A stretch of DNA of 64,000 bases, taken from Thermoanaerobaculia bacterium. Lineage in GTDB: Bacteria > Acidobacteriota > Thermoanaerobaculia > UBA5066. Location of the stretch: NCBI GenBank assembly GCA_963809425.1, contig CAWEJK010000009.1, positions 77,228 through 141,227 of the forward strand, read 5' to 3'. This document shows, one piece after another, positions 1,967-60,112 of the stretch (position 1 is its first letter; every line of letters begins with the position of its first letter). Position numbers and translations under genes: made by a program. The notes under the pieces are model-generated. The model worked only from the letters and a program-made list of their open reading frames with translations. It searched no databases and was not told the origin of the DNA.

Positions 1967-3117
1967 GGTGACGGAAATTGTACCCGCCTCCGCAGCGCCG
2001 CGGCGGTCGGCGTGCCGCCGAGGGCGGCGAGAGCCCCGGGAGTCCCCGAAAACACGAGGCGCCCGCCGGCCGGACCCCCGTCGGGACCCAGTTCCACGAG
2101 GTAATCCGCGCGGGCCAGGAATGCCGTGTTGTGCTCCACGGCGACGATCGAATGGCCGGCCGCGATGAGGCGCCGGAGGACCGCGAGGAGCACGTCCACG
2201 TCGGAAGGCGCCAGCCCGGTCGTCGGCTCGTCGAAGATGAAGAGCGCCGGTTCGTCCGGGCCGCCGCTCCTCAGGAAGGACGCGATCTTCAACCGCTGCG
2301 CTTCACCGCCCGAGAGCGTCCCGGTGGACTGGCCGAGCGTGAGATAGCCGAGACCCGCTTCCGCGAGCGGCGCGAGCCGCTCGGCGATCGCGCGGACGTC
2401 GGCGAAGAGGTCGCGCGCCTCGTCCACCGTCGTGGCGAGAAGCTCGTCCACGTTTCGTCCGCGCAGGCGGACCTCGAGCACGACGGACTTGAATCGCCGC
2501 CCGTCGCAAACGTCGCACACGACCGTCACGTCGGCGAGGAACTGCATGTCCACCGTCACGACGCCGGCGCCCTCGCAACGCTCGCAGCGGCCGCCTTTCG
2601 CATTGAAGCTGAACGCTCCCTTCTCGAGGCGGCGCGCCTTCGCGGCGGGCGTGCGCGCGAGAAGCGTCCTGATCTCGTCCCATGCCTTCGTGTACGTGGC
2701 GGCATTCGAGCGCGAGGAGCGCCCGAGCGGCGACTGGTCCACGAGAATCACGTCCGAGACCCTCTCGAGACCCTCGATCGCGTCGTGCGAGCCGACCTCG
2801 TCCACGCCCGGGAGCACGCCCTTTCCCATCCGCTGCCGCGCGCCCGCGGCGAGGACGTCCACGACGAGCGAGGATTTTCCGGAGCCGGACACACCGGACA
2901 CCGCGACGAGCCTGTGGAGAGGGAAAGAGACGGAAATATTTTGAAGATTATTTGCTCGCGCACCCCGGATCAGGATCGATTCGACGGAGCTCAGTTGCAG
3001 ACTGGAAGAAGATATTTTCTTAGAAGGTGAAGAGGGGTCGGGGCGCGTCCTACCAGCCCGCGCACGACCAGCGACCGCGCCGATGCGCGCCGGCGGTTCG
3101 AGCGCGCTTTCGCTCAC
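1963..3117 (-). CDS. uvrA: UvrA-family ABC ATPase, C-terminal ABC module (separate frame from the N-terminal module)
   Basis: ILIRGARANNLQNISVSFPL, Walker A GVSGSGKSS, zinc motifs CERCEG and CDVCDG, signature LSGGEAQR, Walker B FIFDEPT. First plausible start after the N-module stop is GTG 3117. The frame stays open further upstream. Confidence 0.8.
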   Translation of the reverse strand: MSESALEPPARIGAVAGRARAGRTRPDPSSPSKKISSSSLQLSSVESILIRGARANNLQNISVSFPLHRLVAVSGVSGSGKSSLVVDVLAAGARQRMGKGVLPGVDEVGSHDAIEGLERVSDVILVDQSPLGRSSRSNAATYTKAWDEIRTLLARTPAAKARRLEKGAFSFNAKGGRCERCEGAGVVTVDMQFLADVTVVCDVCDGRRFKSVVLEVRLRGRNVDELLATTVDEARDLFADVRAIAERLAPLAEAGLGYLTLGQSTGTLSGGEAQRLKIASFLRSGGPDEPALFIFDEPTTGLAPSDVDVLLAVLRRLIAAGHSIVAVEHNTAFLARADYLVELGPDGGPAGGRLVFSGTPGALAALGGTPTAAALRRRVQFPSP

Positions 3118-3245
3118 ACCCCCTTCTAAGAAAGCGCCGAAGGCGCCCACCGTTTCGGCAGCCAGTGCGTGATTCGACGCAGTCGGCCCGTAACCGCCTG
3201 AGTCCGAAGCAAAGATCTTCTCTCCCTCTCCCTCTCCCTCTTCAG
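2931..3245. repeat. composite AT-rich repeat island at the uvrA-like module junction (copies at 2931-2955+, 3004-3037+, 3115-3138-, 3206-3245-)
   Basis: Copy A is ggaagaagatattttcttagaaggtgaagagggg. Copy B is cacacccccttctaagaaagcgcc. Copy C is gaagcaaagatcttctctccctctccctctccctcttcag. GC-rich filler lies between them. The TAG that ends the N-module ORF (3126-3128) lies inside copy B. Confidence 0.8.
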
Positions 3246-4997
3246 CGATCTGCCAGTCGCCGTGTCCTGTTCCTCCAGCTCCGCGGGCGAACCTTCGAAG
3301 ACGAGCCGGCCGCCTCTGGCGCCGGCGCCGGGGCCGAGGTCGATGACGTGGTCCGCGGCGCGGATCACGTCCGTGTCGTGCTCGACGGCGACGACCGCGT
3401 TGCCGCCCGCCGCGAGCCGCCGGATGACGCCGAGCAGCCGCTCGGTGTCGCGCGGATGGAGGCCGACGGTCGGCTCGTCGAGGACGTAGAGCGTTCCGGT
3501 GAGCGCGTTGCCGATGGCCGAGCCGAGCTGGATGCGTTGGGCTTCTCCGCCCGAGAGCGTGCGCATCGTGCGTGAGAGCGTGAGATAGGAGAGCCCGATC
3601 TCGACGAGCGTCGACACGCGGCGCCGGAGCTCGTCGACGAGCGACGCCCCCCGCGCGCGCTCTTCCGCGAGGGGAAGTGCGCCCTCGAGAAACACGAGCA
3701 GCTCGTCGAGCGTCAGGGCCGCGACCTCGGCGATCGTCTTTCCGGCCAGCGTGACCGCGAGCGCCTCCGGCTTGAGCCGCGCGCCCGCGCAGGCCGGGCA
3801 CGGCGTGTAGCCGCGATAGCGCGAGAGCAGCACGCGGACGTGCACCTTGTAGCGCTTCTTCTCGAGGTACTTGAAGAGCCCCTCGACGCCGTACCAGTCG
3901 CCCGCGCCTTTCCACACGACCTCGCGCTCGCGCGGGGTCAGCTCGTTCCAGGGCACGTTCCAGCGCACCTTGTTCCGCCGGGAGACCGCCCGCAGGTCGT
4001 CGTACGCGCTCTCGTAGGCGGGCGAATTGAACGGCGCGATCGGCCGCCCCGCGAGCGACTTTCGCGGGTCGGGAACGACGCGGGCCGGATCGATGCCCGC
4101 CACGCGCCCGAAGCCCTGGCAGGTCTCGCACGCGCCCCGCGGCGAGTTGAACGAGAAGAGGGCCGGCACGGGATCCGTGAAGCGCCGCGCGCAGGCGTCG
4201 CAGACGAGGCCGCGAAAAAAGCGGCGGGCGGAGGAAAGACCAGGACCCTCTCCGCTCCTCAATGCGAAGAGCTTCCCGTCACCGGAGTCGAATGCCATTG
4301 AAAGGGAAGAGAGAAGTTCCGGATCCGAAGAAGCGAGCACGTGGCGCCCGACGAGCAGCGGAAAGGCTCCAAGCGGCTCCGCCGCTTCCCTCATCTCTTT
4401 CTCATTCAAAGAAATTTCCAGTACGTGACCCAACGCACTGACATAGCGGAAGAAGCCCTGCCTTCTCCACTCCGCGCTCTCGGCGTCGAACGACTGGACC
4501 CTGCGCGGCGCGATCACGAGGATCCGCGCGCCCTCTCCCCATTCTGAAAGCAGGATTTCCCGTAGTCCTTCGACGGTGTGGCGCGTGACGAGTGTGCCGT
4601 CGTTCGGGCACCGAAGAGTCCCCGCCGCCGCGAACAGGAGCCGCAGGACGTCGTGGATCTCGGTCGCGGTCCCCACGGTGGACCGGGCCGAGCGTCCCGG
4701 CGCCTTCTGCTCGATCGCAAGCGCGGGCAGGACGTGCTCGATGAGGTCCACGTCGGGGCGCTCGAGGCGCTCGAGGTACTGCCGGGCGTACGTGGACATG
4801 GATTCGACGAACCGGCGCTGGCCCTCCGCGTAGAGCGTGTCGAAGGCGAGCGAGGATTTCCCGGAGCCCGAAGGGCCCGTGACGACGGTGAACGCGCCGA
4901 CGGGAAAAGAGCACGTCACGTTCTTCAGGTTGTGCGTACGCGCACGCACGACCGTGATCGAAGCGGCGCCCCGCACGGGCTCGGCCCGCCGCGTCAC
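3126..4997 (-). CDS. uvrA: UvrA-family ABC ATPase, N-terminal ABC module
   Basis: Walker A GPSGSGKSSLAFDTLYAEGQRRFVES, Cys motifs CDACARRF, CETCQGFG and CPACAGARL, signature LSGGEAQR, Walker B YVLDEPT. GTG start at 4997 overlaps the methyltransferase stop as GTGA. The ORF-track extension up to 5840 is a shadow frame over the methyltransferase. Confidence 0.8.
   Translation of the reverse strand: MTRRAEPVRGAASITVVRARTHNLKNVTCSFPVGAFTVVTGPSGSGKSSLAFDTLYAEGQRRFVESMSTYARQYLERLERPDVDLIEHVLPALAIEQKAPGRSARSTVGTATEIHDVLRLLFAAAGTLRCPNDGTLVTRHTVEGLREILLSEWGEGARILVIAPRRVQSFDAESAEWRRQGFFRYVSALGHVLEISLNEKEMREAAEPLGAFPLLVGRHVLASSDPELLSSLSMAFDSGDGKLFALRSGEGPGLSSARRFFRGLVCDACARRFTDPVPALFSFNSPRGACETCQGFGRVAGIDPARVVPDPRKSLAGRPIAPFNSPAYESAYDDLRAVSRRNKVRWNVPWNELTPREREVVWKGAGDWYGVEGLFKYLEKKRYKVHVRVLLSRYRGYTPCPACAGARLKPEALAVTLAGKTIAEVAALTLDELLVFLEGALPLAEERARGASLVDELRRRVSTLVEIGLSYLTLSRTMRTLSGGEAQRIQLGSAIGNALTGTLYVLDEPTVGLHPRDTERLLGVIRRLAAGGNAVVAVEHDTDVIRAADHVIDLGPGAGARGGRLVFEGSPAELEEQDTATGRSLKRERERERRSLLRTQAVTGRLRRITHWLPKRWAPSALS
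4295..4562. repeat. three copies of the AT-rich repeat family inside the uvrA-like N module (4295-4316+, 4385-4421-, 4531-4562-)
   Basis: Sequences are ccattgaaagggaagagagaag, cttccctcatctctttctcattcaaagaaatttccag and ccctctccccattctgaaagcaggatttcccg. All are in frame (SSLSMAF, EISLNEKEMREA, REILLSEWGEG). Confidence 0.6.
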
Positions 4998-14766: not shown

Positions 14767-15861
14767 GTGGAAACGAGCCGCGAATCGGCGCGCGCCATCA
14801 CCCGCCGACTCGCGCGCTGGTACCGCGCGCACGGACGCTCCCTTCCGTGGCGCCGGACGCGCGACCCCTATGCGATCTGGCTCTCGGAGGTCATGGCGCA
14901 GCAGACGGCGATCGAGGTCGTGGTCCCGCGCTGGGAGCGCTTCCTGTCGCGCTTTCCGACCGTCGCGGCGCTCGCGCGCGCACCGGAGCGCGCGGTACTC
15001 GCCGAGTGGAGCGGTCTCGGCTATTACGCGCGCGCGCGGAATCTGCACCGCGCCGCGAAGGCCGTCGCGAGGGCGGGAGCGTTTCCGCGCACGTTCGAGG
15101 GCCTGAGGGCGCTTCCCGGCATCGGGGCGTACACGGCGGCCGCGGTCTCCTCGATCAGCTTCGGGATCCCCGAGCCCGCCGTGGACGGCAACGTCGTGCG
15201 CGTCCTCTGCCGTCTCCACGGCCTTCGCCTCGATCCGAAGACGCCCGCGACGCTCGCGAGAGTGCGCGCGCTCGCGCGGCCGCTCGTGCCCGCGCGGAGG
15301 CCCGGCGACCACAACCAGGCCGTCATGGAGCTCGGCGCCCTCGTGTGCACCCCGCGCGCGCCTCGCTGTGGCGCGTGCCCCCTGCGCGCGCTCTGCCGGG
15401 CCGCGGCGAGCGGGAAGCCGGAAGGCTTCCCGCGAAGGCCGCGCCGCCCGCAGCCGCGCGCGATTCATCTCGTTGCGGGCATCGTCGAAAGAAAGAAGAA
15501 GATTTTGCTCGTAGAAGACAAAGAGCTCGTGCCGGGACACCTCATCGTGCCTCTGTTTCGCACTCCTGCAGGGGAACGGCCTGCAAAGTTTCTTAGAAGG
15601 GGGTGGAAGCGGCTCACCGGCGGCACGGTCACCGCCGTATCGCGGGTAGCGACGCTTCGCCACTCGGTCCTCGATCGCCGCTATGTCGTCTCCCTCTTCA
15701 CCTTCAAAGAAAATCCACCGGCGCCCCTGCTTCCCCGCCCGCACGAAGCGGGCGGGATCCGTCTCCTCTCGTTTCGTCAGATTTCCCGGCAGGCTCACGG
15801 CGGCCTGCTGCTCAAAGTCCTCGCGGCCTGGCGTGCGCACCGCGCGCGCCAGGCCCGCTGA
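14767..15861 (+). CDS. mutY: A/G-specific adenine DNA glycosylase
   Basis: LPWRRTRDPYAIWLSEVMAQQT, helix-hairpin-helix LPGIGAYTAAAV, Fe-S cluster CTPRAPRCGACPLRALC, and a NUDIX-like C-terminal domain. GTG 14767 is preferred over ATG 14692, which overlaps the divergent gene. Confidence 0.85.
   Translation: METSRESARAITRRLARWYRAHGRSLPWRRTRDPYAIWLSEVMAQQTAIEVVVPRWERFLSRFPTVAALARAPERAVLAEWSGLGYYARARNLHRAAKAVARAGAFPRTFEGLRALPGIGAYTAAAVSSISFGIPEPAVDGNVVRVLCRLHGLRLDPKTPATLARVRALARPLVPARRPGDHNQAVMELGALVCTPRAPRCGACPLRALCRAAASGKPEGFPRRPRRPQPRAIHLVAGIVERKKKILLVEDKELVPGHLIVPLFRTPAGERPAKFLRRGWKRLTGGTVTAVSRVATLRHSVLDRRYVVSLFTFKENPPAPLLPRPHEAGGIRLLSFRQISRQAHGGLLLKVLAAWRAHRARQAR
15487..15719. repeat. three copies of the AT-rich repeat family in the mutY C-terminal domain (15487-15525+, 15583-15612+, 15691-15719-)
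   Basis: Sequences are gaaagaaagaagaagattttgctcgtagaagacaaagag, gcaaagtttcttagaagggggtggaagcgg and tccctcttcaccttcaaagaaaatccacc. They encode ERKKKILLVEDKE, AKFLRRGWKR and SLFTFKENPP. Confidence 0.8.
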
Positions 15862-35183: not shown

Positions 35184-36923
35184 TCACGACGTCGACGACG
35201 CGGTCCGGGGCGATTTCGGACGCCTTCTTTCGCGGCGCGTCGAGACCTCCACGACGCCCTTCGCGAGGCCCTTGCCGCCCACGACGACCCGAAGCGGGAA
35301 GCCGATGAGGTCGATGTCCTTGAACTTCACGCCGGGGCGCTCGTCGCGGTCGTCGTAGAAGACCTCGACGCCGGCGGCCCTGAGATCCTCGTAGAGCCTG
35401 TCCGCCGCCTCGAGGACGTGCGCGTCGCGCTGCAGGACGGCGACCACGCAGGCGAAGGGCGCGAGCGGCACGGGCCAGACGATCCCGACGTCGTCGTGGT
35501 TCTGCTCGATGGCGGCCGCGACCGTGCGTCCGAGGCCGAGCCCGTAGCAGCCCATCGCGAGCGGCACCATCTTCTGGCTCTGGTCGGCGACCTCGCACTT
35601 CATCGCCTCGGAGTACTTCGTCCCGAGCTTGAAAATGTGGCCGACCTCGATGCCGCGCTTGATCCGGAGGAGGCCGCCCTTCGGGGCGGGCGACGGATCG
35701 CCGTCGCGGGCGGTCGCGACCTCCACGACTCCCTTGAACGCGGGAATGCCCATCACGTCGCGCGGGATGGAGACGTTCGAGTGATGAAGATCGTCCTTGT
35801 TCGCCCCGCACCAGACGTTGCGGCCGTGCTCGAGAGAGCGGTCGACGAAGACGAAGACGGGATTTTCTGCGAAAGGAAGAAGAGCGAGCGGCCCGACGAA
35901 GCCGGGGCGCGTCCCCGTTACCTTTCGAAGAATCTCCTCCGAAGCCAGCTTCACATGGAGCGCGCCGATCGCCTTCGGGAGCTTGACCTCGTTGATCGCG
36001 AGATCCCCGCGGATCAGGACGGCCGCAAGCCACGCCTTGCCGTCCGCGCCGACTGCCTCGTAGATCATCGTGTTGACGATGCGGTCCGGCGTCGTTCCGA
36101 GGTGCTGCGCCTGGCCCTCCGTCGTCGTGATGCCCGGTGTCGGCGCGTTCGCCTCTCCGAACGGCTTCTCGGCCTCCCCCGCCCACGGCTCGGGCAGCGG
36201 GCCCGTGACCGCCTTCTCGACGTTCGCGCCATAGTCGCCGGCATCGGCGAAGACGAGCGCGTCCTCGCCCGTCTCGGCCACGACCATGAACTCCTGCGAA
36301 GCCGAGCCGCCGATGGCGCCCGAATCGGCGTCCACGAGCGCGTACTCCAGCCCGCATCGCTCGAAGATGCGCCGGTACGCGGCGTCCATCTTCTTGTAGT
36401 GGAGGTCCAGCCCCTTCTGGTCGACGTCGAACGAGTACGCGTCCTTCATCAGGAACTCGCGGCCGCGCAGGAGCCCGAAGCGGGGGCGGATCTCGTCGCG
36501 GAACTTCGTCCGGATCTGGTAGAGGTTGAACGGCAGCTGCCGCCACGACGTGACCGAGCGCCGCACCATGTCCGTGACGGCTTCCTCGGCGGTCGGCGCG
36601 AGCGCGAACCTCCCGCCCTTGCGGTCCTCGAGGTGGAAGAGGATGCCGTCGGCCACGTAGCGGTCCCAGCGGCCCGACTCCACCCACAGCTCCTTCGGCT
36701 GGAGGATGGGCAGGTCGACCTCCATCGCGCCGGTCGCGTCCATCTCCTCGCGCACGATCTCGATCATCTTCCTGAGCGCGCGAAAACCGAACGGCGTGAA
36801 CGAATAGATGCCCGCGGCGAGCTTCTGGATCATCCCCGCCCGGTAGAGAAGCTGATGCGAGACGACCTCGGCGTCGCCGGGCACCTCGCGGAGGGTCACG
36901 AGAAACGACTGCGACCAGCGCAT
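35184..36923 (-). CDS. proS: proline--tRNA ligase (bacterial type with editing domain)
   Basis: RFGLLRGREFLMKDAYSF, IKRGIEVGHIFKLGTKYS, MGCYGLGLGRTVAAAIEQ, and an anticodon-binding tail. Confidence 0.95.
   Translation of the reverse strand: MRWSQSFLVTLREVPGDAEVVSHQLLYRAGMIQKLAAGIYSFTPFGFRALRKMIEIVREEMDATGAMEVDLPILQPKELWVESGRWDRYVADGILFHLEDRKGGRFALAPTAEEAVTDMVRRSVTSWRQLPFNLYQIRTKFRDEIRPRFGLLRGREFLMKDAYSFDVDQKGLDLHYKKMDAAYRRIFERCGLEYALVDADSGAIGGSASQEFMVVAETGEDALVFADAGDYGANVEKAVTGPLPEPWAGEAEKPFGEANAPTPGITTTEGQAQHLGTTPDRIVNTMIYEAVGADGKAWLAAVLIRGDLAINEVKLPKAIGALHVKLASEEILRKVTGTRPGFVGPLALLPFAENPVFVFVDRSLEHGRNVWCGANKDDLHHSNVSIPRDVMGIPAFKGVVEVATARDGDPSPAPKGGLLRIKRGIEVGHIFKLGTKYSEAMKCEVADQSQKMVPLAMGCYGLGLGRTVAAAIEQNHDDVGIVWPVPLAPFACVVAVLQRDAHVLEAADRLYEDLRAAGVEVFYDDRDERPGVKFKDIDLIGFPLRVVVGGKGLAKGVVEVSTRRERRRPKSPRTASSTS
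35856..35944. repeat. convergent pair of the AT-rich repeat family inside proS (35856-35886+, 35915-35944-)
   Basis: Sequences are gacgggattttctgcgaaaggaagaagagcg and ccgttacctttcgaagaatctcctccgaag. They encode LLPFAENPV and ASEEILRKVTG. Confidence 0.65.
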
Positions 36924-39885: not shown

Positions 39886-40703
39886 GCGGCCGCCGCGGCG
39901 CGCCGCACGCGCTCGAGAAAGCGCTCGGTGAGGAGGACGAACTCGTCCTCCCTCTCGACGATCAGCGCGTGACCCGAGCCCGGCACGACGACGAAGCTCG
40001 CGCCGGGAATCGCGGCCGCCACCGCCTCGGTCCGCTCGAGAGGCATCGCCGCGTCCCGGCCCGCGGCGACGACGAGGACCGGGCAGGCGATCTTCGGGAG
40101 GACGGGCCGGAGGTCGACCGTCGCGAGCGCCCCGAGGAGGCCCTCGAGCCCCAGGAACCACGCGTCCGGCAGGAGCCCGACCTGCGCGCGGCGGGCCGCG
40201 ATCTCCTCCGCGCGAGCGGCCTGCCATTCGGACGTGTACGCGAGGTGGACGATCGCGTCGTAGACCTCGGTGCGCTCCCCGCCGCGCGCCGCGGCCCGCA
40301 CGGCCTTCCCGAGTCTCGCGCCGGGCTCGCCGAGCCCTTCGTCCGCGACGTCCGTGACCGTCGCCGCGACGAGGGACGTGACGCGCTCCGGGTGGCGGGC
40401 CGCGAAAAGAAGGCCGACGTACGCGCCGAAGGACGCGGCGACGAGGTCGACCCGTCTCTCTCCGAGGGCGTCGAGGAGCGCCGCGACGTCGTCCGCGTGC
40501 TCCTCCATGGAGGCGCGCGGCTCGCCGGGCGAGAGAAGCTGGCCGCGGAAATCGCAGCGGATGACGCGGTGCCGCGCCGCAAGGCGCCGGGCGATCGGCT
40601 CCCACGCGGCGATCGACATCATTCCGCCGTTGAGGAGCAGCAGCGGGGGGCCTTCCCCGTCGACACGGTGGGTCAGGACGCCCGAAATAGGCGTCGTGCT
40701 CAC
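39882..40703 (-). CDS. alpha/beta hydrolase
   Basis: LLLLNGG, nucleophile elbow ASFGA, C-terminal GSGHALIVE. GTGA overlap with the acyl-CoA ligase stop. Confidence 0.85.
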   Translation of the reverse strand: MSTTPISGVLTHRVDGEGPPLLLLNGGMMSIAAWEPIARRLAARHRVIRCDFRGQLLSPGEPRASMEEHADDVAALLDALGERRVDLVAASFGAYVGLLFAARHPERVTSLVAATVTDVADEGLGEPGARLGKAVRAAARGGERTEVYDAIVHLAYTSEWQAARAEEIAARRAQVGLLPDAWFLGLEGLLGALATVDLRPVLPKIACPVLVVAAGRDAAMPLERTEAVAAAIPGASFVVVPGSGHALIVEREDEFVLLTERFLERVRRAAAAA

Positions 40704-41830
40704 TTCGGATCGTCCGAGGAAGAAGAAGAGGAAGATTTCCTAGAAAGGTAAGAGAGCCGGAGATCTCCCTTCACCACTTTTCCGTATGGGGTGCGCGGGA
40801 GCGAGTCCACGAAGACGAAATCGCGGGGGACCTTGTAGCGCGCGAGCCGCCCCTCGACGAACGCCGCCAGTTCGGCCTTCTCTCCCTCTCTCTCTCTTAC
40901 TTTCAAAGAAATCTTCTCTTCTCCCCTCTTTTCCTCTCGGCGAACCACGAAAGCCACGCCGACCTCGCCCCACTTCTCGTCCGGCACCCCGACGACCGCG
41001 ACGTCCTTCACTCCCGGGTGCTGGAAGAGGACCCCCTCGATCTCGGCCGGGTAGACGTTGACGCCTCCCGAAATGAGCATGTCTTTCTTGCGCCCGGCGA
41101 TCGTGAAGAAACCGTCCGCGTCCTTCTTCGCGAGGTCGCCCGTGTGGAACCAGCCCCCGGCGTCGAGCGAGGCCGCCGTGGCCTCCGGGTTCCGGTAGTA
41201 GCCCTTGCAGACGTGGGGCCCCTTGAGGAGGAGCTCGCCGACCTCGCCGACCGGCACCTCGCGCCCGTCCTCTCCCGTCAGCTTCGCCTCGGTGAACATC
41301 ATCGGCCGGCCGATCGAGCCGGCCTTCCGCACCGAGTCCGCGAGGCTCATCGCGAAACAGTTCACGCCGACCTCCGTGAGGCCGTAGCCCTGCTTGAACG
41401 CCGCGCCGCGCTTCTGCCAGGTCTCGATGATGTCGAGCGGCAGCGGCGCGCCTCCGCTGATGAAGTAGCGGACGCTCGAGAAGTCGGCCGACGCCCACGC
41501 GGGGTCCTCCTGGAGCATGCGGAAGATCGTCGGCACGCCGAGGATCACCGTGCAGCGCTCCTTGCCGATCGTCGCGAGGATCTCGGCCGGGTCGAAGCCC
41601 GCGAAGAGGACGATCGTCCCGCCCACGGCGAAGATCGGCGTCAGGAACGCGCCCAGCCCGCCCGCGTGGTAGAGCGGCGTGTAGACGGGCGACACGTCGT
41701 CCTCGCGAAGCTGCCACGAGACGACCGTGTTCACGGCGTTCCACGCGACCATCCGGTGCGGCACCATCACGCCCTTCGGCTTGCCGGTCGTGCCCGACGT
41801 GTACAGCAGGCAGTAGAGGTCTTCGGGACC
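40700..41830 (-). CDS. AMP-dependent acyl-CoA synthetase/ligase, C-terminal fragment (frame c)
   Basis: PEDLYCLLYTSGTTGKPKGVMVPH, YHAGGL, GYGLTE, WFHTGDL, and YKVPRDFVFVDSLPRTPYGKV. The first M in the track ORF is at 41770, but the frame is open to about 41830. Confidence 0.8.
   Translation of the reverse strand, partial: GPEDLYCLLYTSGTTGKPKGVMVPHRMVAWNAVNTVVSWQLREDDVSPVYTPLYHAGGLGAFLTPIFAVGGTIVLFAGFDPAEILATIGKERCTVILGVPTIFRMLQEDPAWASADFSSVRYFISGGAPLPLDIIETWQKRGAAFKQGYGLTEVGVNCFAMSLADSVRKAGSIGRPMMFTEAKLTGEDGREVPVGEVGELLLKGPHVCKGYYRNPEATAASLDAGGWFHTGDLAKKDADGFFTIAGRKKDMLISGGVNVYPAEIEGVLFQHPGVKDVAVVGVPDEKWGEVGVAFVVRREEKRGEEKISLKVREREGEKAELAAFVEGRLARYKVPRDFVFVDSLPRTPYGKVVKGDLRLSYLSRKSSSSSSSDDPK
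40716..40938. repeat. convergent pair of the AT-rich repeat family flanking the last conserved acyl-CoA ligase motif (40716-40758+, 40877-40938-)
   Basis: aagatttcctagaaaggtaagagag (40732-40756) matches the reverse complement of 40892-40915 (aagatttctttgaaagtaagagag). The copies encode the tail LSYLSRKSSSSSSSDDPK* and REEKRGEEKISLKVREREGEK. Confidence 0.8.
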
Positions 41831-42101
41831 AGGAGAAGAGGAGATTTCTGCAGCGGCGGCCGTACGGCGCCGCTGGAAGAGGAGAGAAAGAGAAGAGAAG
41901 ATTTCTGAGAAGGGGAAGAGGGCCCGCGCGCGCCTTCGGGCGGTCGCGGTTGGCGCGGCCGGCGAGCTCGCGGGCTTCGCCTTTCCGCTCTCCGACCCCT
42001 TCTAAGCACGTCCTCTTCGGACCTTCCAGATGGCGCCGAAGGAGCCTGTCGAGCGGCACGCCCTGACAGTTCCTTTCCCCTCTTAAGCAGATATTTCGCG
42101 G
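41831..42101. repeat. composite AT-rich repeat island disrupting the acyl-CoA ligase (copies at 41831-41853+, 41875-41924+, 41988-42020-, 42067-42101-)
   Basis: Direct repeats gagaagaggagatttctg and gagaagagaagatttctg flank the hairpin cagcggcggccgtacggcgccgctg (41851-41875). The inverted partners are ccccttctaagcacg and cccctcttaagcagatatttc. The gene changes frame twice in this interval. Confidence 0.75.
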
Positions 42102-42441
42102 TCTCTTCGAACCCTGCCCCATAGATCAGAGCCTTCGGCTCGGCGTCCGAAACAACACCTTCCAGCTCCCCCGCCGTCTGCCGCGTATTCAACGGGACGA
42201 GGACGACGCCCGTCTTGCCGCACGCGAAGAAGACGTCGAGGAATTCGACGCGGTTGCGGGCGAGGAGGGCCAGGCGGTCGCCCTTCTTGAGGCCGAGGCC
42301 CTCGACGAGAGCGCGGGCCGCGGCCCGCGCGCGCGCGTCCAGCTCGGCGTACGTGAAACGGCGGCCGGTCGCGACCTCGACGAGCGCCGTCTTCTCCGGC
42401 GAGAGGCGCGCGCGTTCGCCGAGGACGTCGCCCGAGATCAC
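42100..42441 (-). CDS. AMP-dependent acyl-CoA synthetase/ligase, N-terminal fragment (frame a)
   Basis: ISGDVLGERARLSPEKTALVE...TYAELDARARAAARALVEGLGLKKGDRLALLARNRVEFLDVFFACGKTGVVLVPLNTR...ALIYGAGFEET. Downstream of about 42100 the track ORF 41767..42441 is Arg/Pro-rich noise. Confidence 0.75.
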
Positions 42442-55135: not shown

Positions 55136-56784
55136 ACGGCGTTTTCCGCGCGAACGCCCTTCGCGCCTCCGGAAGGGCTCTCCTCGCGGGCGATGCCCGC
55201 GGTCGCCTCGTCGCAATGGCCGGGCTCTTCGCGCTCCTCGTTTTCGCGGTCCTCGAGACGGCCGGGCTCGAAGGCGCCCTCCGGGCCTCGCGCGCCGCTC
55301 TCGGCGAGCTGCCCGAGATCCGGCCGGCGTTCCTCGTCGAGCGCCTCCTCGCCGGAGCCTTCGCGGCCGCCCTCGTCCTCGGATTCCTCGGCTCGCTCAC
55401 GACGGCCATCAGCACGCTCTTCCTCTCCGAGGAGCTCGCGGCGCTCGCCACGCTCCCGTTCCCGCACCGCCGCCTCGTGCTCCGGCAGGCCCTCGTGACG
55501 CTCGCTCTCGCCTCCGCGCCGACGCTCCTTCTCGCGGCGCCCGCGCTCGTCGTCGCGGCCGGAGCGGGAGGACGGCCCCTGCTCGCGCTCCTCGCCGGTG
55601 CGCTTCCGCTCGCGGGCGTGATGCTCCTCGCGGGCGCGGCAGGGATCGCCGCGGCGCTGCTCTTCGTGCGCGCGGTGCCTCCGAGGCGCGCGCGCCTGCT
55701 CGCGGCCTTTCTCTCGGCGACGGGTCTTGCGGTCGCGCTTCTCGGCTTTCGCGCCGCCAGGCCGGAACGCCTTCTCGATCCCCTCGAGGCGCTCTCCGTC
55801 GTGACCGGGCTCGGGACTGCGCCTCTTTCCCCGCCCGGCGTCAACCCCGCGGCGTGGGCCGCTCGCGCCGCGACCCTCGGGCTCTTCGGAGACGCCGGAG
55901 GACTCCTGCCCGGCGCCGCGCTCTTCCTCGCCGGCCTCGTCGCGTTCCTTCTCGTGCCGGCGACGCTCTGGCGATTGCACCTCCACGTGTTCCGCGAGGC
56001 GCGGACGGGAGTCGTGCGAGCGGCAGGAGGTGAGAACCGGGGCCCCGAAGCCCGCTCGCTCGCCGGCGTGCTCCTCCGCGCGGAAGCGGCGAGCCTTCTC
56101 CGCGACGCCTCCACGCCCGCGCAGCTCGGCTCGCTGGCCGCCGTGTTTCTGCTCGACCTGATGAACGTGCGGCTCCTGCCGGGCGCGGATCTCTCGGCCC
56201 GCGACCTCGTGGCCGGGCTCCAGACGGGGCTGTCCTTGTTTCTCGTCTCGGCCCTCTCGCTCCGCTTCGCGTACCCCTCCGTCTCGTCGGACGGCCGCGC
56301 CGCGCTGATTCTCCGGACGCTCCCCCTGGATCCGCGGCCGCAGCTGCTCGCGCGCTGGGCCGTCCGCGCCCTTCCCGCCACGGGGATCGCCCTCGCCCTG
56401 ACCGGAGCGAGCCTCCTCGTCCTCCGGCCCGCGGGTGCGACGTCCGCCGTTGCGCTGCTCGCCGCTCTCGCGGGAGGCCTCGCGATCCCGGCCCTTCACC
56501 TCGGGCTCGGCGCCGTATTCCCGCGCTACGACGCGCCGAATGCCGTGAGCGTCGCGTTGTCGTCGGGAGGGCTCTTCGCGCTCGTCTTCTCGACGGGCCT
56601 CTCCCTCTTCTCGACGCTCGTCGTGTCGGAAGAGCTCCGTCTGCTGCTCGGTTCGCTCGTCGGGATGCGGTTGTCGCCCTGGGCGCTTTTCCTGTCGTTC
56701 CTCTCGTCAGCGGCCGCGGCGGCTTTCGCGCCGATGGCACTGGCGGCAAGATCCCTCGCGAGAAGTGACATCTCGATCGGGTGA
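55132..56784 (+). CDS. putative ABC exporter permease (polytopic membrane protein)
   Basis: GTG start in a GTGA overlap with the ATPase stop. About 550 aa and Ala/Leu-rich with many TM segments. The track ORF upstream of 55132 is a shadow frame. Confidence 0.7.
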   Translation: MNGVFRANALRASGRALLAGDARGRLVAMAGLFALLVFAVLETAGLEGALRASRAALGELPEIRPAFLVERLLAGAFAAALVLGFLGSLTTAISTLFLSEELAALATLPFPHRRLVLRQALVTLALASAPTLLLAAPALVVAAGAGGRPLLALLAGALPLAGVMLLAGAAGIAAALLFVRAVPPRRARLLAAFLSATGLAVALLGFRAARPERLLDPLEALSVVTGLGTAPLSPPGVNPAAWAARAATLGLFGDAGGLLPGAALFLAGLVAFLLVPATLWRLHLHVFREARTGVVRAAGGENRGPEARSLAGVLLRAEAASLLRDASTPAQLGSLAAVFLLDLMNVRLLPGADLSARDLVAGLQTGLSLFLVSALSLRFAYPSVSSDGRAALILRTLPLDPRPQLLARWAVRALPATGIALALTGASLLVLRPAGATSAVALLAALAGGLAIPALHLGLGAVFPRYDAPNAVSVALSSGGLFALVFSTGLSLFSTLVVSEELRLLLGSLVGMRLSPWALFLSFLSSAAAAAFAPMALAARSLARSDISIG

Positions 56785-56890
56785 CCTTTCTAAGAAGATT
56801 TTCCTTGAAGGGCGAATGAGCGACGCGCTCGCGAGCGATGCTTCGGCGCGCTCTGCCGCTCTTCTCTTCACCTTCTAAGCAGAATTCGTC
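56783..56890. repeat. intergenic inverted pair of the AT-rich repeat family between convergent genes
   Basis: Arm gattttccttgaagggcgaatgagcg (56798-56823) pairs with the reverse complement of 56858-56890 (gacgaattctgcttagaaggtgaagagaagagc). A GC-rich spacer lies between the arms. An extra overlapping reverse core cctttctaagaag lies at 56786-56798. Confidence 0.75.
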
Positions 56891-56940
56891 TCGTTCGGAC
56901 GTTACGAATTGCCCGGAGCGCACACGCGATGCCCGGGCGT

Positions 56941-58022: not shown

Positions 58023-60112
58023 GGCACCGCTCCGGCAGGCCTCGCTTCACGCGGGCGGGACGTCACGCGCACGGACACGAGACGGTCGTTCTGCTCGATG
58101 CGGTCGAGGACCTCGACCCCTTCGAGGACGCGTCCGAAAACCGTGTACCCGCCGTCGAGATGCCGCTGCGGCGAGAGAGCGATGAACCACTGCGACCCGC
58201 CCGTGTCCGGCCCCGACAGCGCCATCCCCACGCTTCCCCGGGCGTAACGCACCGCGTTGATTTCGTCGGGAATCGCGTGACCCGGCCCCCCGTTACCATC
58301 CCCGCGCGGATCGCCGGTCTGCACGACGAAGTCGGGCACGACGCGATGGATCAGGAGTCCGTCGAAGAAACGCCTTGCGGCGAGCGCGCGAAAACTCTCG
58401 ACTGTCATCGGGGCTTCCTCGGCGAGAAGCTCCATGCGAATCGCACCCCTGGACGTCACGATCTCCGCCTCGAAGACCGACTCGTTCGCCGCGCGCGCGA
58501 GCCGGTCGTAGTCGACCCGCGAGAGCCGTGTCGCGGCCGGAATCGGCCGGAACGAATCCGGTGCGACGCCGTACTTCTCCACGAGCAGCCGCCTGGCTTT
58601 CTCCCGCGCCACGTCATTCGCGTCGTTCCCGTGAGAGGAGACGAGGGCGCGGCCGGCCTCGCCCCGCGCGGCCGCGGCGTCGAGCGCGCCGACCGAGAAG
58701 TCCGGCTCGCCGGACTCGAACGCGCGGTCGAACGCCGCCGTCCAGGCGCGCCTCAGCTCCGCACCTCCCTGCTCCAGGAGCGGCGCGGCCGCTTCGAGCG
58801 CCACGTCCCGCACGGCCGGGTCGTGGTCCACCAGGCCGGCCAGCAGATACGCCGAACGCTTCGGAGAGTCCCGCTTGGAAAGGGAAGAGAGGGCCGCGGC
58901 GCGAATTCGCGCGGCCGGGTCGGAATGAAGCGCCTTCGCCGCTTGCTCCTTCGCGGGGCTCTCCTCTTCCAGAAATTCCAGCGCTTCCGAAGCGCCCAGC
59001 CTCAGCTCGAGCGAATCGCTCGCGGATGCCGCATCGAGCCGCGCCGCCGCGGCTTCCGGCGACCGCGCCGCGTCGAGGCGCGTCAGGCTCACGATGGCCG
59101 TCTGCCCTCGCCACCCCTTTCGAAGCAGGTTCTCTTCGAGCACCGAACGCGACTCCGGCGAGTCGGGCAATACCCCGAGCAGACGGAGAGCGGCGATCGC
59201 CACCCCGGGAAGGGGATCGTTTGCTCGGAGAAGAGCGACGTCCCTCGCGCTTCGGGCGACGTCGTCGTTTCGGGAAAGGGCGCCTTTCTTAGAAAGTGAA
59301 TCGAGCGCGGTCAGGGCCTGCACGGAAACCGAGATGTCTCGGCTCGCGGCGAGGCGGATGAGATCCGGAGCGCTCTCTTCGTCCCCGAGCAACCCCGCCG
59401 CGCGGGCCGCCCACGAAACGACGACCTCTTCGTCGATTCCCCTTCTAAGCACGGCGCGAAGCGCCGAAACGGCCGCGGGATCCGGTTTCCGTGACAGGGA
59501 ATAGACGATCGCTCTCCTGAGCTCCGGAGCAGAAGAATCTTCTCCGAACGCGGCGAGCAGAGCCTCCACGGTCCGCGCCTCCGGCTTGCGGAACAGAGCG
59601 AGCGCGCTCGCGGCGCGCGTCGACCCGGCTGTCTCGCGCCTCGCGAGCGACGCGAGGAGCGCGTCCGTCGCGTCCTTCCCGCCGATCTTCCCGAGAGCTT
59701 CGGCCGCGTTCGCCGCCGTTTCCATGTCGGGATCGCCGAGGGCGACGGCGAGGAACCGAACGAGGCGCGCGTCGCCGGAGACCCCCGCCCCGAACGCGGC
59801 CGCGCGCCTGACGCCCGCGTCCGGATCCTTGAGGAGGACCGGCAGGTAGAGCGCGGCGTCGGGATCCCGGAGCCTTCCCGCGGCGAGCGCCGTCTTCGCG
59901 CGCAGCCAGGGATCGGGCGAGACCGCCGCGCGCCCCGTGAGGAGCGGGTCGTAGGCACGGCGATCCTCCATGCGGAGGAGTCCGGCGTATCCGCCGAGGC
60001 GTTCGCGATAGGTGCCCTTCGGGGAGCCCTTTTCCGGGCCGAACGAGATACAGCCGGAGAGGGAGAGGGCGGCGAGGACGGCGGCGAACGCGCGACGGTC
60101 GCGGTGCGACAT
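58019..60112 (-). CDS. lipoprotein with HEAT-repeat region fused to a cyclophilin-type peptidyl-prolyl isomerase
   Basis: Lipobox LSLSGC. Repeated DP(D/A)..VR..A units. C-terminal cyclophilin domain FHRVVPDFVVQTGDP...GSVGMA...SQWFI...GYTVFGRV. Confidence 0.85.
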   Translation of the reverse strand: MSHRDRRAFAAVLAALSLSGCISFGPEKGSPKGTYRERLGGYAGLLRMEDRRAYDPLLTGRAAVSPDPWLRAKTALAAGRLRDPDAALYLPVLLKDPDAGVRRAAAFGAGVSGDARLVRFLAVALGDPDMETAANAAEALGKIGGKDATDALLASLARRETAGSTRAASALALFRKPEARTVEALLAAFGEDSSAPELRRAIVYSLSRKPDPAAVSALRAVLRRGIDEEVVVSWAARAAGLLGDEESAPDLIRLAASRDISVSVQALTALDSLSKKGALSRNDDVARSARDVALLRANDPLPGVAIAALRLLGVLPDSPESRSVLEENLLRKGWRGQTAIVSLTRLDAARSPEAAAARLDAASASDSLELRLGASEALEFLEEESPAKEQAAKALHSDPAARIRAAALSSLSKRDSPKRSAYLLAGLVDHDPAVRDVALEAAAPLLEQGGAELRRAWTAAFDRAFESGEPDFSVGALDAAAARGEAGRALVSSHGNDANDVAREKARRLLVEKYGVAPDSFRPIPAATRLSRVDYDRLARAANESVFEAEIVTSRGAIRMELLAEEAPMTVESFRALAARRFFDGLLIHRVVPDFVVQTGDPRGDGNGGPGHAIPDEINAVRYARGSVGMALSGPDTGGSQWFIALSPQRHLDGGYTVFGRVLEGVEVLDRIEQNDRLVSVRVTSRPREARPAGAVP
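58870..59550. repeat. seven copies of the AT-rich repeat family in the HEAT-repeat region (58870-58895+, 58957-58988-, 59102-59141-, 59217-59242+, 59272-59305+, 59425-59457-, 59527-59550-)
   Basis: Examples are cgcctttcttagaaagtgaatc, attccccttctaagcacggcgc and ccacccctttcgaagcaggttctcttcgag. Encoded peptides are SLSKKGA, VLRRGIDEE, ENLLRKGWRG, SLSKRDS and EFLEEES. Confidence 0.7.

Follow-up and report, generated by a model that had tools for sequence, protein, structure and literature searches.

An in-frame repeat island in an acyl-CoA ligase gene from a soil member of the Thermoanaerobaculia, and the probable consensus errors that break its reading

Repeats that lie within bacterial coding sequence invite comparison with several described systems: the Rickettsia palindromic elements (RPEs), the MITEs (miniature inverted-repeat transposable elements) together with repetitive extragenic palindromic (REP) sequences and their paired form (REPINs), and the DNA uptake sequences (DUS) of Neisseria and uptake signal sequences (USS) of the Pasteurellaceae. 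When the repeat coincides with a broken reading frame, the 'pseudogenes' produced by Nanopore consensus errors also have to be considered. Here, we describe a locus to which all of these are relevant: an acyl-CoA ligase gene in a 64-kb stretch (64,000 nucleotides; hereafter, the window) of contig CAWEJK010000009.1, assembly GCA_963809425.1, from a soil member of the Thermoanaerobaculia. The GC content of the window is 69.5%. The gene is readable only across three frames, which change within an island of repeats. We consider it probable that this three-frame reading reflects long-read consensus errors over a genuine island, itself built from a dispersed repeat of the Thermoanaerobaculia.

Like the RPEs, this repeat is short, multi-copy and specific to one lineage, and its inverted arms are able to form a hairpin. 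It, too, lies within housekeeping genes (here those of the ligase, UvrA and MutY), is read through in different frames and occupies loops that are disordered in a structure model. There is, however, no sequence relation. The unit conserved here is a 34-nt arm, in contrast to the RPE unit of 100-150 bp, and no full-length unit is common to the copies; the spacers are non-conserved and can be native coding sequence; and the host is a free-living organism of 70% GC, in which the repeat is no more than a candidate mobile element. With MITEs and REPINs, the common ground is the occurrence of inverted arm pairs, 40-250 nt apart and in one fixed relative orientation (38 versus 1), whose arms pair in 30 of 31 folds, and a copy number that extrapolates to hundreds to about a thousand per genome. 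Unlike those elements, the pairs have no conserved interior, and no clear target-site duplication is seen in the ligase sites compared. The arm also differs from REP/REPIN sequences in being a polypyrimidine tract around TTCTAAGAAA, without a GTAG/CGTC head, and many copies are intragenic. A partner transposase did not come to light, although no search aimed at one was made.

A DUS has a highly conserved core of 9-12 nt and occurs about once per kb. The present repeat resembles DUS and USS in its short conserved core with weaker flanks, present in both orientations; in its frequency in coding regions in all permissible frames, with stops avoided and enrichment in poorly constrained segments; and in the location of some inverted pairs between convergent genes (here 56786-56894). 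It differs in a more degenerate core (1.4-2 bits per position, in instances that had been selected on the core), a lower density, strong clustering in islands and the bias in pair orientation. The family lacks at least one defining feature of each of the RPEs, the MITEs/REPINs and the uptake sequences. As for Nanopore-error 'pseudogenes', the window shows isolated coding indels at a short homopolymer and at GATC, on a very long metagenomic contig, and the same gene is broken in a Nanopore-only metagenome-assembled genome (MAG) and intact in short-read relatives; the differences are that the density of indels in the island is far above the contig background, that the island is partly a case of real divergence, and that the technology behind the contig is deduced.

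The ligase and its island

The ligase gene lies on the minus strand (42441..40700), with a GTG start at 42441 and a stop codon at 40700-40702, and encodes an ordinary fatty-acyl-CoA ligase of the ANL family. Homologues number in the thousands in a protein search; roughly the nearest hundred have full length, at 500-586 aa, and the top matches are from Thermoanaerobaculia and Acidobacteriota MAGs. Pfam places both the AMP-binding N-domain (PF00501) and the AMP-binding C-domain (PF13193) on P0046, which is the protein entry for the window's own C-terminal ligase fragment, and on all orthologues. The nearest solved relatives are 8weu/8wev (E = 1e-114), followed by FadD13 (3r44). The P-loop motif YTSGTTGKPKG and the catalytic-lysine motif PRTPYGKVVKG are read in frame 2 of the window; the corresponding (Y)TSGTTGxPKG and PRTxxGKxxK are invariant across a 59-sequence alignment.

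The original prediction, made from the letters of the window alone, held that the ligase can be read only across three frames, and this is indeed so. Frame 0 gives the N-terminal 124 residues, from GTG 42441 to ...ALIYGAGFEETAKYLLKRGKEL, and ends at about 42067; the core resumes in frame 2 at 41827; and the intervening ~240 nt consist of low-GC repeats and a GC hairpin (Table 1). The two frame switches that were then implied are too few. At least five are needed: from frame 0 to 1 at ~42069, from 1 to 0 at ~42043-42039, from 0 to 2 within 42000-41915, from 2 to 1 at ~41880 and from 1 to 2 at ~41861. The peptides that succeed one another over the island are LLKRGKE (frame 0), NCQGVPLD (frame 1), GRSEEDVLRRG (frame 0), FSEIFSSLS (frame 2), LPAAPYG (frame 1) and AAAAEISSSPGPEDL (frame 2).

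Along the gene strand, the island consists of a native helix, a degenerate purine arm, a GC-rich spacer, a strong pyrimidine arm, a ligase-specific hairpin and a partial arm. It had been described as a four-copy island with two direct and two reverse copies. Identity between the two direct copies (41833-41850 and 41890-41907) is 94%, the hairpin is where it was said to be (41851-41875) and the repeats are above chance: the 18-mer of the direct copies occurs four times in the window against 0.04 expected, and CCCCTTCTAAG eight times, at one mismatch or fewer, against 0.39 expected. Inverted cores are present at 41905-41915 and 41996-42006, but of the two supposed reverse copies only the first corresponds to a degenerate purine-type arm (41987-42026); the second (42067-42101) is native helix sequence that occurs in island-free orthologues too, and only 41890-41923 is strong by position weight matrix (PWM; 46 bits), the other three copies being partial or degenerate. 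This helix, EETAKYLLKRGK, is found with AT-rich codons in every orthologue, the island-free L008 included, and corresponds to residues 112-121 in the AlphaFold2 model of P0003, where the predicted local distance difference test (pLDDT) score is ~90. The interval was also said to lack GATC; one is present at 42124-42127, though away from the frame switches.

Table 1. Features of the ligase gene and its repeat island, with coordinates in the window and frames as read there.
Feature	Coordinates	Strand	Remarks
Ligase N-terminal part	42070..42441	-	Frame 0, up to ...ALIYGAGFEETAKYLLKRGKE; 80% identical to L001 residues 1-145
Native helix (G)FEETAKYLLKRGKE	42067..42108	-	DNA bears a degenerate purine-type repeat core (GAAATATCTGCTTAAGAGGGG)
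Frame-1-only stretch NCQGVPLD	42039..42069	-	Flanked by window-specific extra bases at 42069 and 42043/42039
Degenerate purine-type arm	41987..42026	-	Encodes SEEDVLRRG, frame 0; homologous to SEEDLLRxEN of P0003/P0005/P0013/P0044
GC-rich spacer between arms	41924..41986	-	Unlike all relatives; contains a net non-3n length difference
Strong pyrimidine-type arm (GCCCTCTTCCCCTTCTCAGAAATCTTCTCTTCTC)	41890..41923	-	(P)FSEIFSS, frame 2; PWM 46 bits, the window maximum
GC hairpin CAGCGGCGCC-GTAC-GGC(C)GCCGCTG	41851..41875	.	Encodes LPAAPxGAAAE; extra base or mismatch in the window alone
Partial pyrimidine-type arm (CAGAAATCTCCTCTTCTCC)	41831..41850	-	EISSSPG; repeats a portion of 41890-41907 in direct orientation
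Ligase core and C-terminal domain	40703..41827	-	Frame 2, PEDLYCLLYTSGTTGKPKG to ...DDPK; 87.6% identical to L001 residues 172-577, no frame break
Second repeat arm, C-terminal-domain loop	40890..40923	+	In frame, EEKISLKV; PWM 45.6 bits; absent in L127
Third repeat arm, C-terminal tail LSYLSRKSSSSSSS	40724..40757	-	PWM 39.7 bits; common to the close clade, absent in distant orthologues

In the close clade of orthologues, a variable insert lies exactly between ...GVPLD and PEDLYCLL and is read in one frame. About ten distinct short-read orthologues, along with full-length protein matches, bear the island in this form, and the single-frame reading is borne out by the DNA of L001, L007, L008, L009, L027, L125 and L127; P0003 is encoded identically by 12 contigs of independent JGI/ENA short-read assemblies. 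The island ranges from 16 to ~75 residues. In P0019, it comprises 16 residues without a repeat; P0018 has SSLPAAPTGAAAESSRSLPG; P0001 adds GRGRSLTFKEIF; P0003 and P0005 add SEEDLLRxEN and a Gly/Ala-rich stretch; and the insert of P0044 reaches ~75 residues. The island peptide of an intact orthologue is, for example, TFKEIFSSLPAAP. Distant orthologues (<=66% identity) have a short ordinary linker at this site. The modules are present or absent independently of each other; the partial arm comes after the hairpin in every orthologue that has the hairpin. The strong pyrimidine arm reads TFKEIFSS in the orthologues, and the C-terminal-domain loop with EEKISLKV is expanded to varying extent. In all short-read orthologues, three sites of the ligase carry variable extra residues in frame, as read from the DNA and with translation predicted.

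An orthologue alignment, which had been proposed as the deciding comparison, thus gives one frame once single-base indels are corrected. It does not show conserved native sequence throughout: most residues are repeat-derived extras, absent in P0019, L008 and the distant orthologues. In the model of intact P0003, the island (residues 132-192) has a pLDDT of 33-50 and its flanks ~90. Such low values between well-modelled flanks are compatible with a tolerated surface loop, variable and probably disordered, which would be translated without harm to the enzyme.

Short-read assemblies often stop or gap at the island, as with an N-run in L126 (2360-2460) and a contig end in L125 (1-20). Furthermore, one contig of the related sequencing run X1 (see below) seems to skip 96 nt (32 codons) at 41804-41899, across a joint (41803>41900) that has just 23 nt on one side. 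The skip and the gaps are hints that length variants co-exist.

Origin of the frame breaks

The closest public relative of the window is run X1, which shares 53% of 31-mers over 10 kb (~97-98% identity). Its contig spanning the island has one base fewer at each of 41861, 42039, 42043 and 42069, and an extra G after 41880; these single-base differences sit exactly at the frame switches of the window. Without the three extra bases at 42069, 42043 and 42039, X1 reads KGCQGVPLDRPSARDGRSEEDVLRR in one frame, and the orthologues show (K/R)xCxGVxLD where the window reads NCQGVPLD. When the X1 differences are applied to the window, the result is ...KYLLKRGKGCQGVPLDRPSARDGRSEEDVLRR, then 27 codons, then FSEIFSSLSLPLPAAASAAAAEISSSPGPEDL..., in one frame throughout. 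In each frame-shifted segment of the window, the X1 peptide is nearly unchanged, as expected of errors or of very recent events. The suggestion that several small indels and native sequence, and not one clean insertion, lie behind the frames is borne out by the comparison with X1 and the orthologues.

The GC hairpin supplies an internal control. Its 10-bp stem, of the form CAGCGGCG[G/C]C-N4-G[C/G]CGCCGCTG, is conserved in eight orthologous sequences, in seven of which it is perfect; two pairs have compensatory changes, with both sides altered. Of the 80 cells of the alignment, 98.8% are paired, and the single unpaired one is that of the window, at the switch from frame 1 to frame 2. A defect that is confined to the window and falls at a frame switch supports consensus error.

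Similar lesions occur elsewhere on the contig. When the proteins of the syntenic locus L001 are placed on the window, each follows a single frame over a span of 22 kb, apart from three cases that lie outside the island. In the gene for prolyl-tRNA synthetase (ProRS), an A/T run at 35227-35230 is one base short and the last 28 residues are shifted; both X1 and L001 have the missing base. The alpha/beta hydrolase gene upstream of the ligase has, compared with L001 and X1, two single-base insertions (42527 and 42556), each at a GATC, which shift the last ~36 residues. The third, uvrA (minus strand, 2990-3340), is split over two frames within a repeat island containing the arm pair 3004-3037 / 3110-3130, and the X1 contig differs there by -1, -7 and +1 at 3214-3228. 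Given that ProRS and UvrA are essential, these lesions argue for errors rather than decay. A second low-GC island of uvrA, at 4256-4471, reads in frame. The hydrolase and ligase genes overlap by 4 nt in L001, and in P0012, P0026, P0035, P0043 and P0083 the two are called as one fused protein of ~800 aa, which may be an effect of gene calling or of an indel.

The ligase break also appears, from the sequences compared, to track sequencing technology. L010 comes from a MAG of Microflora Danica, whose assemblies used Nanopore data alone and a single Medaka round (PMC12313526); two breaks lie in its copy of the same ligase, one of them at the GATC of ALIYG. That errors in Nanopore consensus sequences gather at methylation motifs and homopolymers is documented (PMC6591954). 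All short-read versions of the ligase are either intact or do no more than stop or gap at the island. Truncated protein matches were considered as independent frame breaks and rejected, P0056 being a contig end and P0065 a scaffold gap. Single-base indels relative to short-read relatives, along with similar lesions at homopolymer and GATC sites of the contig, are what a long-read artefact leaves. Long-read consensus error is the likeliest cause of the frame breaks and was not weighed in the original prediction, which did call for verification at read level.

The course of events may be pictured as follows. Repeat arms would have colonised three tolerant sites of the ligase: the loop that precedes the P-loop motif, one loop in the C-terminal domain, and the C-terminus. 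Intact relatives would translate the first of these in one frame, as a SEEDLLR arm, the GC-rich spacer, a TFKEIFSS arm, the LPAAPxGAAAE hairpin and the partial arm. In the window, about six single-base indels, presumably Nanopore-type errors of a metagenome consensus, would scatter the same island over three frames. The errors might be concentrated here by the low-complexity purine/pyrimidine sequence, by structural variation among co-existing strains and possibly by a modified GAAGG motif.

Several points weigh against this account. There are about six indels in ~210 nt of island, against about three in 21 kb elsewhere, a rate roughly 100 times that of the rest of the contig and unusually dense for a polished consensus. 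The sequencing technology of the window is itself deduced only from the length of the contig (419 kb) and the error pattern. Among public runs, none spans 41840-42077 at >=96% identity; the run searches gave relatives only, X1 being the best, and no reads of the exact strain by which error and mutation could be told apart directly. Part of the island is, in addition, genuine divergence and not simple error: 83 nt of the window (41914-41996) are replaced in X1 by 81 unlike nt, and at 42029-42043 four substitutions relative to the relatives accompany two indels. Alignment of the GC-rich spacer with L001/L007 takes several non-3n gaps. Inversion of this GC-rich middle between the inverted arms was considered and rejected, the gene-strand orientation aligning better than the inverted one. 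Finally, five of the nine suspect indels (41917, 42039, 42043, 35228, 42527) lie within 6 nt of GAAGG/CCTTC, against a background of 8%; the link was made post hoc (p ~3e-4). It suggests a sequence-specific, possibly modification-linked, source of error within the repeat core, and is a lead only.

Alternatively, the frameshifts might be real, the gene being either a recent pseudogene or one that a slippage-prone, hypermutable tract switches off in the manner of phase variation. The length of the island is hypervariable among strains and species, part of the window island is truly divergent, the indels lie in short purine/pyrimidine runs where slippage is plausible, and the skip in the X1 contig and the ends or gaps in L125 and L126 could be read in the same sense. 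Against this, the other ~1,500 nt of the ligase are free of stops and frameshifts and retain 80-88% protein identity to intact orthologues, and the shifted segments still give orthologous peptides. Five or six independent indels here, with none elsewhere in the gene, would need an extreme local rate after the first inactivating event; the runs, at just 2-4 nt, are too short for classical phase variation; and real mutation would have to extend to the essential ProRS and uvrA genes, which bear similar lesions on the same contig. We therefore regard real mutation as unlikely, and infer that the indels are errors.

It is also conceivable that the breaks are real but overcome, by programmed frameshifting or bypassing, by excision of the island from the RNA, or by the 3n+2 excision at the DNA level that was originally envisaged. 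The arithmetic of the last is correct, in that loss of 41831-42099 (269 nt, which is 3n+2) restores the frame. Folding of the island RNA, a check that had also been proposed, gives a structure somewhat better than those of shuffled sequences (z = -2.3), and there is the conserved hairpin with its compensatory changes. Excision would, however, delete the native GVPLD, which is conserved in all orthologues, and orthologues translate through the island: every one of them, X1 (~97-98%) included, is single-frame and no recoding signal is conserved. Rescue during expression would need five switches in both directions, and the sole slippery-type heptamer, G GGA AAG (~42076), would lead a programmed -1 shift to a stop. 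No intron or ribozyme is matched in Rfam, nor was any other relevant RNA family found when the whole window was searched at the gathering threshold and locally by E-value. Such a rescue is very improbable, and consensus error over a genuine island is the reading adopted below.

The dispersed repeat family

By k-mer enrichment, TTCTAAGAA(A) and CCCCTTCTAAG are the words most over-represented in the window. When 185,579 species genomes were scanned for CYTTCWMAGAAATCTTCTY, at least 115 stretches matched; among the 115 listed, 62 are of high GC, and the titles given for such matches are Thermoanaerobaculia or Acidobacteriota MAGs. The family is real and specific to one lineage, Thermoanaerobaculia/Acidobacteriota MAGs dominating the matches listed. 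Its consensus is CCCCTCTTCACCTTCTAAGAAATCTTCTCTTC, with the core TTCTAAGAAA, and the conserved unit is the arm of 34 nt. A PWM scan of the window yields 14 copies where Markov controls yield none. The four that score highest are 3004-3037 in uvrA and 41890-41923, 40890-40923 and 40724-40757 in the ligase. In 540 kb of related loci, there are 167 PWM copies, or ~0.2-0.3 per kb after allowing for seeded matches (~1 per 3-5 kb), from which a genomic copy number between some hundreds and about a thousand is extrapolated. As had been proposed, the ligase island and the uvrA island (at 3120) are related beyond the core, with additional similarity upstream of it. Literature searches, by motif string and for intragenic MITEs of acidobacteria, turned up no account of such a family.

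The arms are read differently in different genes. Readings of the pyrimidine arm include TFKEIFSS and SPSKKISSSS / LSKKSSSS; those of the opposite strand include EEKISLKV, EEDLLRRV and EDFLEGEE. Precisely in those copies whose coding frame would include it (TFKEIFSS, EEKISLK), the core's TAA/TAG has been substituted. This indicates a unit whose propagation or selection takes place at the level of the nucleic acid. The GC3 periodicity of the flanks left 107 of 140 frames unclear, and this test, being too strict, was not used.

Neighbouring copies are arranged as pairs with a marked orientation. In 62 loci (L010-L124) and the window, inverted pairs of neighbours <=300 nt apart have the purine arm first in 38 cases and the opposite order in one; the purine-first pairs make up 38 of the 48 neighbouring '-+' pairs within 300 nt. 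In 30 of 31 folds, the two arms base-pair. Spacers of 38-250 nt are unrelated across 31 pairs, and some are native coding sequence, such as the ligase C-terminus at 40757-40890. The idea that the composite of direct pair, hairpin and inverted pair might itself be a multi-copy unit was rejected: the hairpin is confined to ligase orthologues, and the spacers of three window composites, like those of the 31 pairs, are non-homologous. Comparison of filled ligase sites (window, L010, L001) with empty ones (L127, L008) showed blurred GA-rich boundaries and no clear target duplication.

Insertion or duplication of arms would be the working model for the spread of the family. A serious rival is that the arms are not inserted mobile DNA, and that mutation together with biased fixation generates the motif in situ, in the manner of an uptake sequence or a protein-binding site, with islands growing by local duplication. 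In its favour, the core occurs at native sites whose AT-rich codons the orthologues conserve (the helix EETAEDLLRRV, the C-terminal domain of MutY at 15488-15724 and, at 59273-59306, the HEAT protein); its TAA/TAG is mutated just where the frame is read; the pair spacers are unique, and some are native coding sequence; neither a clear target-site duplication nor a sharp boundary is seen at the ligase sites; and in P0013 the second arm resembles a tandem duplicate of a native segment. Independent origin does not, however, predict the 38:1 purine-first bias within 300 nt. Copies also cluster in islands, the presence and absence of modules is polymorphic among close orthologues, and the core is more degenerate, and its density (~0.2-0.3 per kb) lower, than in known uptake sequences. 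We regard origin in place as possible, if somewhat doubtful.

Other copies in the window include an in-frame arm pair around 80 nt of coding sequence in a MutY-like gene (15577-15724, plus strand; AKFLRRGW ... SLFTFKENPP) and an in-frame arm in a HEAT/cyclophilin gene (59273-59306). A further arm pair, at 56786-56894, lies between convergent genes that end at 56784 and 56941. A role as a bidirectional terminator was rejected for this pair, the fold being no better than those of shuffles (z = -0.2) and only one weak terminator-like match being present. The purine arm contains a Shine-Dalgarno-like AGAAGGTGA, and the pyrimidine arm TCACCTTCTAAG (e.g. 3004-3037) would recall the 3' end of 16S rRNA, TCACCTCCTTTCTAAG.

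Implications for the lineage

Tentatively, the observations might be united in a family, undescribed so far as we have found, of 34-nt polypyrimidine arms around TTCTAAGAAA that occur about once per 3-5 kb, almost exclusively in purine-first inverted pairs enclosing unique or even native coding DNA, and colonise housekeeping genes in several frames as hypervariable translated loops, one of them with a compensated nucleic-acid hairpin. This would be the counterpart of the RPEs in a free-living organism of high GC content, and its GAAGG core, if modified, could mislead Nanopore calling. Were the last point true, the islands would be systematically frame-broken in long-read MAGs. For annotation, read support for the break should be required before a frame-broken gene from a long-read MAG of this lineage is labelled a pseudogene or a recoding candidate, especially at low-GC islands within high-GC coding sequence.

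For the biology of the repeat, the unexplained 38:1 rule of pair orientation and the compensated hairpin are handles on how it spreads and on whether it acts as DNA or as RNA. For that of the host, the locus indicates that a short dispersed repeat can sit in frame, in variable dosage, inside essential and housekeeping enzymes of a free-living, high-GC bacterium. The island yields strain-level polymorphism in protein length, a pattern mostly known from Rickettsia.

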